Source: Escherichia coli | GTDB lineage: Bacteria > Pseudomonadota > Gammaproteobacteria > Enterobacterales > Enterobacteriaceae | Assembly: GCF_003334255.1 (NCBI RefSeq) | Contig: NZ_QOWU01000007.1 | Reading direction: 5' to 3' (one strand) | Length of the DNA stretch: 64,000 bases | In this document: positions 25,279-32,144 of the stretch, piece after piece | Layout of the letters: each line of letters begins with the position of its first letter | Numbering within the stretch: position 1 is the stretch's first letter | Notes under the pieces: model-generated | Told to the model about the DNA's origin: nothing | Database searches by the model: none | What the model saw: only the letters and a program-made list of their open reading frames with translations | Position numbers and translations under genes: made by a program

Positions 25279-26664
25279 TTACGCCGTGCGTTTACGGGCT
25301 TCTATCTCTTCCACAATGCGGACATACATCTTCTCGTTCAGGCTGTAGAAGCAACCCATCGCCACAATGGTGACTACCGCCAGTGCGCTTGGGTAGATGA
25401 AGATCAACTGGCGTAACCCTTCAATGGTGTGGTCAGCCTGTGCGACGTTCGGCACATAGCCAATTTGCGTCAGCATCCAGCCGGGGAAGAAACCAGCCAG
25501 CGCCTGAGACACTTTGCGAAAGAAGGTAAAACCGGTGTAGACCGTTCCTTCCGAACGCACGCCGGTGCGCCACTCGCCGTACTCGACGGTGTCGGAAACC
25601 AGCGCCCAGTTCAGGCTGTTAACAAACGCTGAGCCAAAGAACGCCAGGCAGGAGAACGCCACGAAGCTGACCGAACCGCCGCCGAAGAAATAGTTGAGCA
25701 GATCGCCCAGCACCCAAATCAGCAGGCCGCCGATATAAACTTTCTTCTTGCCAAAACGTCTGACTGAGGCAGGCATCAGGAATACGCCGATGAAAATACA
25801 GCCCATGCTGAAAAATCCCATATACGACAACAGGATGGGATCGTTAAGCACGTACTGGGTGTAATAGACCTGGATGGCGAGCTTGACGTTAAACGCCCCT
25901 AAAGTGCAGAGGTTGGCAATGCACAGAATGAACAGCGGGCGGTTACCCGCAATTGCGCGGAAAGATTGCAGCAGGCCCGGCTTTTGCGCCGGATTAGCAG
26001 GCTGGGTTTCGACATAACGCTCTTTCACGCCCGAGTAGCAGATCCACATAAACAGCAGGCCAAACAGTGAAAACAGCGTGGCGGCGAAGATATAGCCAAG
26101 TTGCTGATTACCTTCGATAAGATTCATAACTGGCACGAATCCCACCGTGCACAGCAGCAGGCCCAGCGTAGCGCCGCCCTGACGCCATGCCGCCAGTGAG
26201 GCGCGTTCGTTGGGGTTTTTGGTGATAGCGGGAACCATTGCGCCGTAGGAGCAGTTCATCATGCTGAAAAACAGTCCGTAAAGCATAAACAGAATAGTGG
26301 CCATCACCGTTTTACCGGTGACATCAAACGGTGTGCCGACAAAGTTGGCGATCGCCAGTAAGGTGACCGGGAATGACGCATACAGAATAAAAGGACGGAA
26401 CTTACCTTTTGGACCGATCTTGCGTCGGGAATCCAACATAATGCCGGTACCCATATCGGTAAACGCAGTAAAGAATTTTGAAATCAAAAAGATAATGCCG
26501 CCATAGGTGCCTGGCAGCCCCAGAACGTCGGTATAAAACTTCAAAAGATAAAGCGTACCGATATCCAGCAGGATGTTAGAGGCCAGGTCGCCAATACCGT
26601 AAGAGAGTTTCTCTTTAAAGGGCAGGCGTAAAGTTGCTGGATCTTCCGTTGTGATGTGACTCAT
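25279..26664 (-). CDS. yihP: GPH-family sugar:cation symporter
   Basis: Track ORF 25279-26697 trimmed to MSHITTEDPATL (461 aa). Aligns along its length with YihO. Confidence 0.88.
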   Translation of the reverse strand: MSHITTEDPATLRLPFKEKLSYGIGDLASNILLDIGTLYLLKFYTDVLGLPGTYGGIIFLISKFFTAFTDMGTGIMLDSRRKIGPKGKFRPFILYASFPVTLLAIANFVGTPFDVTGKTVMATILFMLYGLFFSMMNCSYGAMVPAITKNPNERASLAAWRQGGATLGLLLCTVGFVPVMNLIEGNQQLGYIFAATLFSLFGLLFMWICYSGVKERYVETQPANPAQKPGLLQSFRAIAGNRPLFILCIANLCTLGAFNVKLAIQVYYTQYVLNDPILLSYMGFFSMGCIFIGVFLMPASVRRFGKKKVYIGGLLIWVLGDLLNYFFGGGSVSFVAFSCLAFFGSAFVNSLNWALVSDTVEYGEWRTGVRSEGTVYTGFTFFRKVSQALAGFFPGWMLTQIGYVPNVAQADHTIEGLRQLIFIYPSALAVVTIVAMGCFYSLNEKMYVRIVEEIEARKRTA

Positions 26665-26709
26665 CGATGTTCTCCCTTTGCCCATGAGTTTCCCCACGGG
26701 CGGATGTGA

Positions 26710-28746
26710 TTAGATGCTTTTTAACGACGCGAACAGTGCCGCCCATTCGCTATCGGCGCGATAAAAGACCGGCGGCTTGCCGATGGGCGCATTAACGGTA
26801 ACTTCCCCGCCCCGGAACGCTTCACCCGTCCAGGCGTGGACCCAGTTATCCTCCGGCAGATAGAGCGTCCAGTCGCTACGGCCTTCTTCATGCACCGGAG
26901 CGACCAGAATGTCGCGACCTAACAGGTACTGATATTTCAGGGTGTAAGTGTGCGCATCGTCTTCGTAATGCAGGAACAGCGGGCGCATAACCGGCAGGCC
27001 GGACTTCGCATTCAGCGCGACGGCCTCTTTCAGGTAAGGTTTCAGGGTGGTGAAGACGGTGGTCATACGGGCGAAATGGGCGATGGTTTCTGCGTCGCCG
27101 TCAAACTGCCAGTTGTCGCCAGGACGGTTACCTTCGTGGGTGCGCATCATCGGCGTGAAGGCGCTGAAATCGCACCAGCGCAGCAGCAGCTCTTTGCTGC
27201 GCTTCATCTCAAACAGGGTGGTGTAACCGCCAATGTCGCTGTGGTGCAGGCCATGTCCGGTCATTGCCAGCGACAGCGCCGCCGGGACAACCGACGCCAG
27301 GCCATCGTCGAGACTCCAGTCGACGTTCTGGTCGCCCGCCCACATCATGGTGGAGTATTTCTGGCTACCGGTAGAACCGGCGCGCATAAAGAAAAGGATC
27401 TCGCCGAGCTTGCCCGTTTCTTCAAGGGCTTCGTAGTTACACTTCGCCCACAGCGCAGGCCAGGCGTTATGCATAATTTCGGCACTGACGCCGTTATGCA
27501 GGTACGTGTCGGTGGGCAGATACTCGCCGAAGTCAGCCATCCAGCCGCCGCAGCCGAGTTCAATCATGTTCTTTTTGATCACTTCCTTGAACCAGGCGTA
27601 GGCTTCTGGATTAGTGAGATCGACAACGCCGCCGTAAAACTCGCCAAACTCCACCAGATAGTCACCGCCAGAGGCATCTTTTGCCAGATAGCCGTGTTGT
27701 GCCGCTTCTTCGCAGAGATCTTTATCGCTGGCAACATACGGGTTGATATAGGCCAGGAACTGCACGCCCTCCTGATTCCACTGCTTAATGCGTGAATCCA
27801 GTTGCGGGTAGTTTTCGCTGTTCCACTTCCAGTTCCACATCACGCGTTTGCCAAAAGAGGTCATACGAATACCGGACCAGTCCTGCGCCCAGATGCCGTT
27901 GACCTTCACGCCCGCGTTACGCATGGTGTCCAGTTTCTTCTGGCACACTTCCGTCCCGCCCTGAATGCCGAGCGTTACTCCGTCATAAATCCAGTCGGGC
28001 AGTTCTGGCTGGCGTCCCAGCAGGGCGGTTAATTTTTCCAGCAGGGAAATGTATGTGTCAGCACATTCAAAACGCAGCGTTGCTTTGTCTTCCCACAGCG
28101 CCAGTTCATGGTATTCCGGGGCACTAAAGTCGAAGTTCATATAGCAACTGTTATCAACATGGCAGTAATACTTCTGCGTGCTGACAAACGTAGGCTGTGG
28201 GAAGAAAGTCCAGTAATAGTCGCCGCCCGCATTTTCTTTGCAGTCGGCCTGCCAGGTGACATAGGTTTGTTTGTTGCGACCAACGCCTTGTTCACTGGTC
28301 CATAGCGGGAACGGTTTGCCACGCAGATCGAAGTAGGAAAACTGTTCGCCGCAGCCGTAGATATGGTCCTCTGGTTGAGCGGCAAGGCGCAGCCAGATAC
28401 GGTTGTGGTTAAGGTTGTCGTTTTGTAGTTCCAGCAATAAACGCCCCTGATCGTCGGCAGAGATATTCAGCGTGGCGCTAATGTCAGAACCACGGCTGAA
28501 ATGAATTAACCAACCATCCGGTGACTGGCTGACGATGGCGTCGGTAAGCGCAATTTTCTCCTGTAGTTTATCTTTAATGCTGAAATTACCGCGGAACATA
28601 TCGATATCCGCTATACCTGAGCCAATCCATAAACAAGGATTATCTTTGCTATGGGTTAAAATAAGACGTTGTTGAAAATGTAGGGTAAAACTGTCGTTAT
28701 TCTGATGAAATTGAAAATCTAATAACTGTGGACGTGGCGTATCCAT
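26710..28746 (-). CDS. yihQ: Sulfoquinovosidase (glycoside hydrolase family 31)
   Basis: 678-aa ORF with GH31 motifs (WMADFGE region). Confidence 0.92.
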   Translation of the reverse strand: MDTPRPQLLDFQFHQNNDSFTLHFQQRLILTHSKDNPCLWIGSGIADIDMFRGNFSIKDKLQEKIALTDAIVSQSPDGWLIHFSRGSDISATLNISADDQGRLLLELQNDNLNHNRIWLRLAAQPEDHIYGCGEQFSYFDLRGKPFPLWTSEQGVGRNKQTYVTWQADCKENAGGDYYWTFFPQPTFVSTQKYYCHVDNSCYMNFDFSAPEYHELALWEDKATLRFECADTYISLLEKLTALLGRQPELPDWIYDGVTLGIQGGTEVCQKKLDTMRNAGVKVNGIWAQDWSGIRMTSFGKRVMWNWKWNSENYPQLDSRIKQWNQEGVQFLAYINPYVASDKDLCEEAAQHGYLAKDASGGDYLVEFGEFYGGVVDLTNPEAYAWFKEVIKKNMIELGCGGWMADFGEYLPTDTYLHNGVSAEIMHNAWPALWAKCNYEALEETGKLGEILFFMRAGSTGSQKYSTMMWAGDQNVDWSLDDGLASVVPAALSLAMTGHGLHHSDIGGYTTLFEMKRSKELLLRWCDFSAFTPMMRTHEGNRPGDNWQFDGDAETIAHFARMTTVFTTLKPYLKEAVALNAKSGLPVMRPLFLHYEDDAHTYTLKYQYLLGRDILVAPVHEEGRSDWTLYLPEDNWVHAWTGEAFRGGEVTVNAPIGKPPVFYRADSEWAALFASLKSI

Positions 28747-28944
28747 AACTAATCTCCATAGAGTTGAGAACGAGATTGTTGCCTTCCTGTTATTACAGGC
28801 TTATGTAAAATGATTCTCATAAAACTGATATATAAAAACTTTACAGAAGCTGAGCTGTTTTTAACTTAATAAATTGAAGATACATAATGTTGCCTTTAGC
28901 GAGTGAAATGTTCTTCAATGATTTTGACTGCTAATCAATACAAG

Positions 28945-29871
28945 TTATTTTCTCTGTCCGTAAATATTAAAAAACAGGCGGTGCGGTTTTCCTGATTCCA
29001 GTAATAATAAGTCGATACCTGAATTAAAGGCGTTAGGCGGGCAACTCATAGGTTCAACTGCCAGTCCCTGACGCTGTAATTTTTCACCGCTATAAACCTG
29101 CACCCAGAGTTGATCGGAACAAAGGCTTACCGAAAGCGCCTGCTGTGGATGGGTAATGGTCATTTCCCACAAATCATTAGCGGTTTTAAAGGTGTGGTCG
29201 ATTTTTGTCGCGGCTATTTTTTTCGCCTGCGTGAAATTTAAATCCAGCTCATCAACGTGGTGAAGCGTTGTCGGATTCGCGTGCTCATCGACGGCATAAA
29301 CCTGGTTTGCCGGAAGCTGGAACAGATATTCATCAACAGATGTTAAGTTGCAGGTTAAATAAGGATGAATACCCACGCCATAAGGCGCTGCGACAGTGCC
29401 GATATTCTGGCTTGCGATCTCAACGGAAAGACCCGTGTGTGCGTTGAGCGAATAAACAACTTGTGAAGCCAGCATAAACGGATAGCCGTAACTGGGCGGC
29501 AGAAAAGCTGTCAGGGTAACGCTGGTGGCGGTTAATTCACTAATTTGCCAGTCTCGCCAGGCAAGCAGCCCGTGAATAGCGGCTTTTGAACTATGTTCAT
29601 TAATGGGTAACTGATATTCCTGCCCCTGATAGCGGTAACAGCCGTTGGCGATCCGGTTCGGCCACGGAATAAGCACTTTACCCAGATGCGCCAGCGGCAT
29701 CTCTTCGGGTTTGTGCGGGATGACTAAATGACAACCCTGAAAGGTTAATTCAGCCAGACCAGCACCGACGGTCACAATGGTCGCGTGATAATCCCCCGCG
29801 GCAAGTGAAACGGTCTGTCCACTGCAATGCATATTGGTGATTTGCATACAAGGCACCTTAATTAACGACAT
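28945..29871 (-). CDS. yihR: Aldose 1-epimerase-family protein (sulfoquinovose mutarotase)
   Basis: 308-aa ORF. Confidence 0.9.
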   Translation of the reverse strand: MSLIKVPCMQITNMHCSGQTVSLAAGDYHATIVTVGAGLAELTFQGCHLVIPHKPEEMPLAHLGKVLIPWPNRIANGCYRYQGQEYQLPINEHSSKAAIHGLLAWRDWQISELTATSVTLTAFLPPSYGYPFMLASQVVYSLNAHTGLSVEIASQNIGTVAAPYGVGIHPYLTCNLTSVDEYLFQLPANQVYAVDEHANPTTLHHVDELDLNFTQAKKIAATKIDHTFKTANDLWEMTITHPQQALSVSLCSDQLWVQVYSGEKLQRQGLAVEPMSCPPNAFNSGIDLLLLESGKPHRLFFNIYGQRK

Positions 29872-29879
29872 ACAGCCTC

Positions 29880-29980
29880 CCGTGAGGCTGATGTCAAACC
29901 CAAAAACTGCACCGGACGGTCCCCTCGCCCCTTTGGGGAGAGGGTTAGGGAGAGGGGAAAACCCGCACCCTATTTTCAGA
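29880..29980. repeat. GC-rich structured intergenic element (unclassified)
   Basis: CCCCTCGCCCCTTTGGGGAGAGGGTTAGGGAGAGGGG contains nested CCCCT/AGGGG inverted repeats. I cannot assign it to a named repeat family. Confidence 0.3.
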
Positions 29981-29984
29981 TCAG

Positions 29985-31226
29985 TTATTTCGCATTAATA
30001 TCCAGCAGACCCGCTGCAACCGCTGGAGCCATGCCGGGCGCTAACGGGATACGCGGGATCACCAGGCAATGCAGCAGGTGATAAATATCCTGTTTGCCGT
30101 CCCAGACTTTGGTGGTGACCTTATTGTCCGCATCCAGCTCCTGCCACCAGGAACCATTTTCATAGTCCATCAGGTACTTAATGCAGTACTCCCACCATGT
30201 TTGATACCAGGTTTCATACTGGCGATCGCCAGTGACGGTGTAGAGCGCGTAGGCCGTACCCATTGCTTCGACGATAGGCCAACGTACACGTTCGCGGACC
30301 ACCGGTTTTCCTTCCCAGTCAACGGTATAAACAATCCCGTCCGCGCCATCGGGTGCCCAGGCATCGCGCACGGTGGCGTTAAACAGACCTTTGGCATCTT
30401 CTAGCAGCCATGCTGGTGGTTGTTCGCAACGGGCTTCCAGGGCAGCATGGATGTGCAGCATTAAACGGCCCCATTCGATCCAGTGGCCTGGTGTACCTCC
30501 GAACGCGCGGAAGCGATGCGCCGGGTTATCTTTGTTGTAATCCGGCAGCGGATTCCACTGGGTATCGAAGTGTTCGTTAACGCGATAATGATTATTTCTG
30601 GCGACGTCGTGGATAATCACGGAAGCCACGCGAATCGCGCGATCCAGCCATTTTTTGTCGTGAGTGACGTCATAAACAATCAAGAAAGCTTCCACCGCGT
30701 GCATATTGGCATTGCCGCCGCGGTACTCTTCGGTTTTGCTGAAGGCTTCGTCCCAGGATTCCAGGCACATCTGCTCTTCTTCGCTCCAGAAATATTTCTC
30801 GATAATTTCAATGGTGTAATCGAGCAGCTTGCGCGCTTCCGGGTGACCCGTTGTGACGGCGCTGGCGGCACCCAGCAGAGCAAAGAAGTGTTGATAGCCC
30901 TGTTTGGAGGCATCCACCACGCCCTCGTCATTCACGCAGGCATACCAGCCGCCATATTTTTTATCACGCAGTGCGCCGTTCATGGCTTTGATACCGTGAT
31001 CAACCAACGAGTAAGCGCCAGGTCGACCCATCGCCGCAGCAACGGAATAAACGTGCAACATACGAGCGGTGATCCACAGATGGGTGCCCATCTCTTCTTT
31101 GATTTGCCCTTTATTGCCTAACCAGCCAAAACCAGTCGGCACTACGGAATTTTTACCAAAATCAAAGATGCGGTCGGTTTCCTGTTCCAGCCAACGGTTG
31201 TGGCTTAGGGTGTTAAACCATTTCAT
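29985..31226 (-). CDS. yihS: Sulfoquinovose isomerase (N-acyl-glucosamine 2-epimerase fold)
   Basis: Track ORF trimmed to [16 protein letters not shown] (413 aa). Confidence 0.92.
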
Positions 31227-31242
31227 TCCTTTTATCCTCATC

Positions 31243-32121
31243 TTAGCGGCGTTTAGCCATCATTTCGTCGACGATATCGCCAAGTTGTTGTAATTTCGGT
31301 GCGCAAACGTCACGCAGCATCAGCTCGTTGTCTGGTAAACCGACGACCGATGCCCAGACTGCACGGCCTGCCAGGAATCCCGATGCGCCCGCCGTCATTG
31401 CCACGCGTACGGCACGCGGGAACAGTTTTTCGTCGACACCGGAAGAGAGGATCACCCATGGCATATTGATATGGTCATTCAGACGTTGTGAAGCACAGAG
31501 AAGCTCTTGTTGCGGACCTTTGCCATAAAGCGGCATTTCAACTTTGTAGAGGTCAGCGCCACTGTCGCCCAGCTCTTTGGCGGCATCGATGATCGCTTGT
31601 TCGCGATCGAATTTATCGCCACGACGCGGTGGGCGGACGACTGGCTCAATGATGCTTACCAGACCGTGTGAGTGGCACAGTTCGTTGAACTCTTTCACCA
31701 TATCCAGACGTTGCTGCGCATCTTCATCACTACGCCACAGCACCAGCAGTTTTAAGGCTTTGCCACCGTCTTGTTTGATCTGTAGCGGATTGATTTTGCG
31801 GTCAATAACCACGCTATCGACCGGAATACCGTTGCCAGGAATGAACTCATCGGCGGCGACAATCATGGCGCAACTTTTGGCAATCGCGTTTTGCTCAACC
31901 ACCTGGCGGTAGCAGAATTGTTGATCTACCAGAATCGCCGAGGCATAAGGCGAGAGGGCCTTTGCAGCGTTAACTTTGAAATCAGTTAAAACGCTATCGG
32001 CTACCGGAGCGGGTGCCCCAGCCGCGGCAAACATCATGCGCATGGCTTCGCGCTGATCGACCGCCAGCATGGCAAAACCGCCCGATGCGCGCGTAATGTC
32101 GTTGATGGTGTACTTATTCAT
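31243..32121 (-). CDS. yihT: 6-deoxy-6-sulfofructose-1-phosphate aldolase (class I aldolase)
   Basis: 292-aa ORF. Confidence 0.92.
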
Positions 32122-32144
32122 TCATTTATTCCTTTATCCAGTCG

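Follow-up and report, generated by a model that had tools for sequence, protein, structure and literature searches.

BoxC of Escherichia coli K-12 is an imperfect palindrome, rich in GC and about 56 bp long, that lies between genes and is present in many copies. The motif was first named BoxC in the 1990s and was later re-described by Maher and co-workers as PIT, for potential intrastrand triplex (Holder et al., 2015; PMC4666352). In the original GenBank record of K-12, 33 BoxC copies of 51–59 bp are annotated (PMC5172473), and BoxC was recovered as a known stem-loop family in PMC2267715. Under the name TM_ECO, the isolated G-rich strand was found by CD and NMR to fold in vitro into an intrastrand triplex that was stable, whereas double-stranded TM_ECO gave no triplex signal and an in vivo DMS footprint gave no protection; TM_ECO copies had no bias in strand, gene distance or gene function, and their three-block design and spread across phyla were reported in the same study (PMC4666352). 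Under the name HPG1, CD evidence was obtained for switching of the same motif between hairpin and G-quadruplex (Kaplan et al., 2016; PMC5100583). In the unpaired copies of the Kaplan table, orientation relative to the upstream gene is mixed, which agrees with the published statement of no bias. A search of the later literature on intrastrand triplex repeats turned up no function assigned to these elements.

REP elements and BIMEs resemble BoxC in their niche, short intergenic sites that follow stop codons or separate the genes of an operon, and in forming hairpins in mRNA; they differ in sequence, which is unrelated to that of BoxC. REP elements stabilize upstream mRNA, as is established for malEFG. 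For BoxC, we know of no RAYT-type transposase and of no binding by IHF or gyrase.

Here, the spacer between yihS and yihR was analyzed in the window, a 64-kb stretch of E. coli DNA. An earlier note on this DNA had pointed to a GC-rich structured element in the spacer and had offered two readings: an attenuator or RNA-processing site partitioning the operon, or one copy of a dispersed family of repeats, for which it had no name.

Position of the repeat in the yih cluster

The window was compared with NC_000913.3 over 16 kb (window 25470–41470) and is collinear with it (offset +4,040,530), the two differing by 5 substitutions and 0 indels; to judge from this comparison, the window is K-12-like, from a strain closely related to K-12 or another member of phylogroup A, and is not MG1655 itself. 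The genes on either side of the spacer are as follows.

29985–31241, minus strand: yihS, 418-aa ORF, sulfoquinovose isomerase according to annotated K-12 records; stop codon at 29985–29987
28945–29871, minus strand: yihR, 308-aa ORF, mutarotase according to annotated K-12 records

In annotated K-12 records both genes sit inside the yihUTS-R-Q-P cluster. The gap between them is 29872–29984, the 113 bp given for it in the earlier note (137 bp when the PGAP yihR start at 29847 is used), and the repeat is intergenic, lying between the yihS stop and the yihR start. A string search of the window with the 37-nt string CCCCTCGCCCCTTTGGGGAGAGGGTTAGGGAGAGGGG, which that note had singled out, returned an exact single match at 29921–29957 on the plus strand; the chance expectation, from 100 shuffles, is none. 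The description of the operon as otherwise tightly packed is right in part only, as the yihR–yihQ gap (28747–28944) is 198 bp and AT-rich. That gap contains neither REP nor BoxC. Matches to the REP palindromic unit consensus (...CGYCTTATCMGGCCTAC) numbered 0 in 29872–29984 and 9 elsewhere in the window, which bears out the remark that the element is unlike the REP elements of the window. No further BoxC copies were found within the 64 kb, and no feature is annotated at the repeat site in NC_000913.3 or in one PGAP-annotated K-12 record.

Anatomy and identity of the repeat

The repeat is divided as follows.

29921–29957, plus strand: BoxC core (TM_ECO no. 21, HPGQ no. 48); the G-rich strand is the plus strand
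29909–29920, plus strand: left flank GCACCGGACGGT, partly conserved in the six-copy alignment and within the 51–59 bp BoxC unit
29922–29931, plus strand: block 1, pyrimidine, CCCTCGCCCC; complementary to block 2 apart from a conserved G/A mismatch (type 'A mm' of Holder et al.)
29932–29934, plus strand: loop TTT, between blocks 1 and 2
29935–29944, plus strand: block 2, purine, GGGGAGAGGG; reverse complement of block 1 save for the one mismatch
29945–29947, plus strand: loop TTA, between blocks 2 and 3
29948–29957, plus strand: block 3, purine, GGGAGAGGGG; exact mirror of block 2; position 29951 is a rare A, against T in the family

The core has the three-block layout CCCTCGCCCC-TTT-GGGGAGAGGG-TTA-GGGAGAGGGG and contains a 12-nt direct repeat and an 11-nt inverted repeat. 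The nested CCCCT/AGGGG repeats described earlier are real and correspond to the complementarity of blocks 1 and 2 and the mirror symmetry of blocks 2 and 3. Blocks 2 and 3 together supply four G-tracts (GGGG, GGG, GGG and GGGG, with loops AGA, TTA and AGA) and have CCCTCGCCCC on their 5′ side, as in the HPG1 motif, which is defined by four tracts of ≥3 G, loops of 1–7 nt between them and C-rich sequence on the 5′ side (PMC5100583).

The published family names were reached by a full-text literature search with the repeat sequence string. Table 1 of Holder et al. (PMC4666352) lists as no. 21 the string CCCTCGCCCCTTTGGGGAGAGGGTTAGGGAGAGGGG, of type 'A mm' (a TTA loop 2 and a single mismatched triplet), on the sense strand at MG1655 4,070,452–4,070,487; at an offset of 4,040,530 this interval is 29922–29957 of the window, and the strings are identical. 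Kaplan et al. (PMC5100583) list HPGQ 48, group HPG1, with its midpoint at 4,070,476, between yihR (4/4) and yihS (3/4) of one RegulonDB operon. This BoxC copy is already known, being catalogued in two published tables at the exact coordinate. Judged by its sequence, the element is one copy of BoxC, which has also been published as PIT, as TM_ECO (a triplex motif) and as HPG1 (a G-quadruplex/hairpin motif); it has the three-block layout, near-identity to the consensus, many copies and an intergenic site. The suggestion of a dispersed repeat family was correct, and the family had names.

This copy differs from BoxC of E. coli K-12 by one base and otherwise in nothing of substance. Position 29951 is A here and T in all five other E. 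coli copies that were aligned; T also stands at this block-3 position in 22 of the 23 MG1655 copies in Table 1 of Holder et al. (PMC4666352), and T, not A, was found in block 3 in 129 of 133 copies from other phyla among the matches listed, which makes the A at 29951 a rare variant in the family. Block 3 accordingly reads GGGAGAGGGG in place of the GGGTGAGGGG of PIT/TM_ECO, and the element is one base off the common HPG1 GGGAGAGGGTTAGGGTGAGGG. Since block 3 is a perfect mirror of block 2, a purine-motif triplex at this site would contain A·A:T instead of T·A:T, and block 1 can form an alternative hairpin by pairing with block 3 just as well as with block 2.

Copy number and distribution of the family

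A blastn search with the 113-bp gap as query placed family copies in all 5,426 of 5,426 complete E. coli genomes, at a median of 16 places per genome (range 1–28) and at 18 places in K-12; the copy-number check proposed in the earlier note returned a multi-copy element. Five other E. coli copies were fetched, from flgK/rod-binding protein, trpS–yhfZ, recA–recX, ytfQ–ytfR and lptG–yjgR. They are essentially intergenic, with one extending 6 bp into an annotated CDS, and have in common the invariant core GGTCCCCTCGCCCCTTTGGGGAGAGGGTTAGGGTGAGGGG, with partly conserved flanks. Over the 40-nt core of the six aligned copies, the single difference is the A/T in the yihS–yihR copy.

Plasmids accounted for 47 of 78,468 places. 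A phage-borne element was considered and rejected, only 3 of 50,697 phage records carrying the repeat. Two of the three, 174 kb long and named 'Campylobacter phage', contain three sites apiece that are 94% identical to E. coli BoxC; BoxC is odd for that host, and these records may reflect contamination or chimeric assembly.

GTDB genomes were scanned with blocks 2 and 3 only (GGGAGAGGGYYRGGGWGAGGG) as query; the matches listed came from Archangium, Afipia and Contendobacter MAGs, with no Enterobacteriaceae among them, and are no census, the spread being wider than they show. Among them, the Archangium sp. MAG JAEUJS01 (Myxococcota) carries more than 100 copies, in two subtypes that differ in loop 1 (3 nt or 8 nt), and an Afipia MAG and a Candidatus Contendobacter MAG carry several copies each, those of Contendobacter including the enterobacterial 'CCCTCGCCCC ... 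TTA' type as well as inverted pairs. Among the same matches, block 1 (≤1 mismatch) was present 0–12 nt upstream in 118 of 133 copies, compared with 3 of 133 in the downstream control. At the level of sequence comparison, this independently confirms the three-block design and the cross-phylum spread. The asymmetric motif, with T in block 3, is found again in Myxococcota, Alphaproteobacteria and other Gammaproteobacteria, and its recurrence across phyla hints at a sequence-specific constraint.

Variants of the yihR–yihS gap

Gap variants were typed with a 713-bp query across the yihR–yihS junction, and three variants were seen. The K-12-type gap with the element is present in 2,248 genomes (~56% of the ~4,001 with a yihR–yihS junction). 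A short one-piece gap of 66 bp without the element is present in 1,671 genomes (~42% of those bearing the junction), with the operon kept. In ~85 genomes the best match is only 80–90% identical, and the one examined, TCM3e1, has a truncated variant. A further ~1,400 E. coli genomes are without the junction altogether, in agreement with the 'short yih cassette' of PMC12608037. In O157:H7, ETEC4070 and GN4738 the gap is 66–67 bp and does not contain the following segment.

29896–29972, no strand assigned: segment of ~77 bp, present in the K-12-type gap and not in the O157-type gap; boundaries ± ~3 nt, from K-12 aligned with ETEC4070, O157:H7 NE122 and GN4738

The TCM3e1 allele (89% identity) has a perfect block 1/2 hairpin, CCCCTCTCCCC TTT GGGGAGAGGGG, and has lost block 3 and 23 bp overall; it matches the 'degenerated TM' class of Holder et al. 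(PMC4666352). The ancestral state was sought by comparing five alleles, among which the yihR and yihS flanks are mosaic (90–98% identity); the junction (window 29372–30484) is unusually divergent between E. coli strains, with 90–96% identity in the coding sequence on either side.

The repeat is dispensable at yihS–yihR. With 42% of operon-bearing strains lacking it, it is not a built-in regulator of yih. We consider it probable, at roughly 85%, that this BoxC copy is a passenger, not built to regulate yih, and that any effect it has is a by-product of its folding. It is part of a ~77-bp insertion, and in yih mRNA it would form no more than a hairpin of 10 bp that includes one mismatch, or the alternative long-loop hairpin, at about −19 kcal/mol.

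Folding and transcription across the spacer

The RNA hairpin predicted for the minus strand has a free energy of −19.3 kcal/mol, and the DNA folds have −8 to −9 kcal/mol. The fold of the core was no better than those of dinucleotide shuffles (z −0.6 to −1.7), as any sequence of G-runs and C-runs folds well; for the whole 113-nt gap, z was −1.9 and −2.2. Because the fold matches the expectation from composition, the repeat core cannot be called significantly structured; the hairpin suggested earlier is predicted to be stable in absolute energy. As the yih genes are on the minus strand, their mRNA carries the C-rich strand and can form hairpins only, neither the purine triplex nor the quadruplex; in this the site differs from HPG1, the G-rich strand here being the template strand for yih transcription.

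Neither strand of 29600–30250 contained a terminator-like or promoter-like consensus. The minus-strand hairpin is not followed by a U-tract, ACCGUCCGGUGCAG intervening before the first U-run. A search of both strands of the gap against Rfam at a permissive threshold gave no match; the two best hits, at chance level, scored 15.5 and 14.4 bits where the gathering thresholds are 40 and 55 (E-values 3.6 and 8.6).

Expression was taken from Table S3 of PMC12608037, which gives raw reads for K-12 on glucose and on sulfoquinovose in two replicates. Reads per kb are our own division of raw counts by gene length.

yihU: glucose 1, 2; sulfoquinovose 152, 193 (169–215 reads per kb on sulfoquinovose)
yihT: glucose 3, 1; sulfoquinovose 234, 356 (266–405 reads per kb on sulfoquinovose)
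yihS: glucose 7, 4; sulfoquinovose 547, 612 (about 440–490 reads per kb on sulfoquinovose)
yihR: glucose 0, 0; sulfoquinovose 142, 148 (about 155 reads per kb on sulfoquinovose)
yihQ: glucose 3, 1; sulfoquinovose 676, 699 (about 335 reads per kb on sulfoquinovose)

Since yihR is co-induced with yihS, transcription either reads through the spacer or starts afresh under shared control. The density of yihR on sulfoquinovose is ~1/3 that of yihS, in data that are shallow and non-monotonic along the operon, so that the step is not assignable to the repeat; mild polarity across the spacer as a whole is possible and could involve the repeat. The rebound of reads at yihQ, together with the AT-rich 198-bp gap in front of it, suggests that yihQ has a promoter of its own.

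An attenuator of transcription, or an RNA-processing site, dedicated to separating yihUTS from yihR (and yihQ), as the earlier note had proposed, would be in keeping with the position of the repeat inside the four-gene RegulonDB operon, with yihS third and yihR fourth, with a predicted RNA hairpin of about −19 kcal/mol and with the ~3-fold lower read density of yihR. Like an intrinsic terminator or attenuator, the repeat is a GC-rich hairpin within an operon. It differs from one in having no U-tract and no match to a consensus, and its fold is no better than those of shuffles. The 1,671 genomes that keep the operon without the element, the Rfam result and the strong induction of yihR that persists on sulfoquinovose (0 to ~145 reads, along with yihS) also speak against this proposal, as does the behavior of the family, whose copies have no consistent orientation or gene distance and for which earlier reporter assays, as summarized in PMC4666352, gave no promoter or terminator activity. 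We regard an attenuator or processing site here as highly improbable.

REP slots and a second hairpin in the spacer

At trpS–yhfZ, lptG–yjgR and ytfQ–ytfR, BoxC is present in one strain exactly where K-12 has a REP element. BoxC and REP replace each other in the same intergenic slots, an observation that we did not find stated in the BoxC literature. At recA–recX, where the K-12 gap is 68 bp with no element at this point, strain YZ3E2001 has a 175-bp insertion with BoxC directly after the recA stop and before the terminator hairpin that precedes recX.

The spacer contains one further structure.

29867–29895, minus strand: separate hairpin, outside BoxC and directly 5′ of the yihR ribosome-binding site (RNA fold)

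This hairpin has a predicted RNA free energy of −19.1 kcal/mol and a z of −5.3, a fold that 0 of 200 shuffles equalled. In alleles without BoxC another hairpin, with the outer stem kept, occupies the same place, at −20 and −25 kcal/mol (z −3.1 and −3.4). A hairpin stands at this place in all four gap variants examined and the repeat does not, which makes the hairpin a better candidate than the repeat for any functional signal that the spacer may have. Its 3′ arm holds the ATG (29869–29871) of the 308-aa yihR annotation.

The yihR start is annotated in two ways, at ATG 29871 in RefSeq/EcoCyc (308 aa, in the stem) and at ATG 29847 by PGAP (300 aa). The PGAP start is 24 nt downstream of 29871 and has an AAGGTG motif 7 nt upstream of its ATG. 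On the plus strand of O157-type alleles, the hairpin is followed by T7 and resembles a terminator in the antisense direction there.

The repeat could instead act in the intercistronic manner of REP, its mRNA hairpin blocking 3′-to-5′ exonucleases and stabilizing the yihUTS segment relative to yihR. The established effect of REP on malEFG is a precedent, the three slots in which BoxC takes the place of a K-12 REP lie between a stop codon and the next signal, and the read step has the right direction, with yihS above yihR. Against it, the reads are as shallow and non-monotonic as noted above, and the hairpin at 29867–29895 is equally stable, lies far above shuffles and is kept in all the gap variants examined, so that it is the better candidate for such an effect. 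A REP-like role for this copy therefore seems quite unlikely.

DNA structure and variability of the site

We take the locus to lie ~145 kb clockwise of oriC in MG1655. From that position, the plus, G-rich strand would be the lagging-strand template as well as the template for yih transcription. By analogy with the family consensus in vitro, single-stranded G-rich DNA of this site could adopt a hairpin, purine-motif triplex or G-quadruplex conformation, structures not detected in vivo.

Holder et al. proposed that such folding of the G-rich strand, as triplex or G-quadruplex, stalls replication or repair and makes the sites hot spots of rearrangement, and they found TM_ECO sites to vary more between strains than control intergenic sites (PMC4666352). 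Besides the triplex seen by CD and NMR and the G-quadruplex/hairpin switching seen by CD (PMC5100583), the four G-tracts with 3-nt loops, the divergent yihR–yihS junction (90–96% identity) and its three gap variants would agree with such a role here. The absence of a triplex signal from double-stranded DNA and of DMS protection in vivo (PMC4666352) weighs on the other side. The link to variability is correlative, as repeats could accumulate in, or mark, slots that were already variable, and the same slots turn over REP elements too. A role at the DNA level is somewhat unlikely for this copy, and we prefer to read it as a passenger.

Possible mobility of the element

Presence/absence polymorphism was found at five loci. 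The cores of the copies are near-identical, including the conserved stem mismatch, a sign that they were copied and not selected for pairing. These observations, with the more than 100 copies in one Archangium genome, would suit a non-autonomous MITE-like or REP-like mobile element moved by a putative sequence-specific enzyme. To our knowledge, there is no candidate enzyme for mobility of BoxC. At the five filled/empty or filled/replaced pairs, neither a target-site duplication nor constant ends were found; the inserts range from ~77 to ~175 bp and their boundaries are blurred by divergence of the flanks, so that this result is not a strict exclusion. The family is near-absent from phages and rare on plasmids, as counted above, and no link of TM_ECO to mobile elements was found by Holder et al. 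(PMC4666352). On balance, we judge such an element very unlikely.

Significance

For the yihS–yihR copy, the passenger reading has the consequence that any regulatory effect would arise only as a by-product of folding and would not have been built for yih. The persistence of the asymmetric three-block sequence from E. coli to Myxococcota, with T in block 3 and, in the enterobacterial type, the conserved stem mismatch, raises the possibility of a sequence-specific partner, in place of a passenger that is simply prone to form structure. As an outright speculation, which we rate as a long shot, BoxC and REP might be interchangeable occupants of post-stop-codon slots, with a putative sequence-specific partner that is either a copying enzyme or a reading protein, and the yihS–yihR copy might contribute to the ~3:1 ratio of yihS to yihR transcript.

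On this sequence, annotation of an attenuator in the yihS–yihR spacer is unwarranted, and the value of the result for the spacer is that of negative knowledge. The finding has little significance for the locus itself. The question that it raises belongs to the family: why an exact three-block sequence persists in multiple copies across distant phyla.
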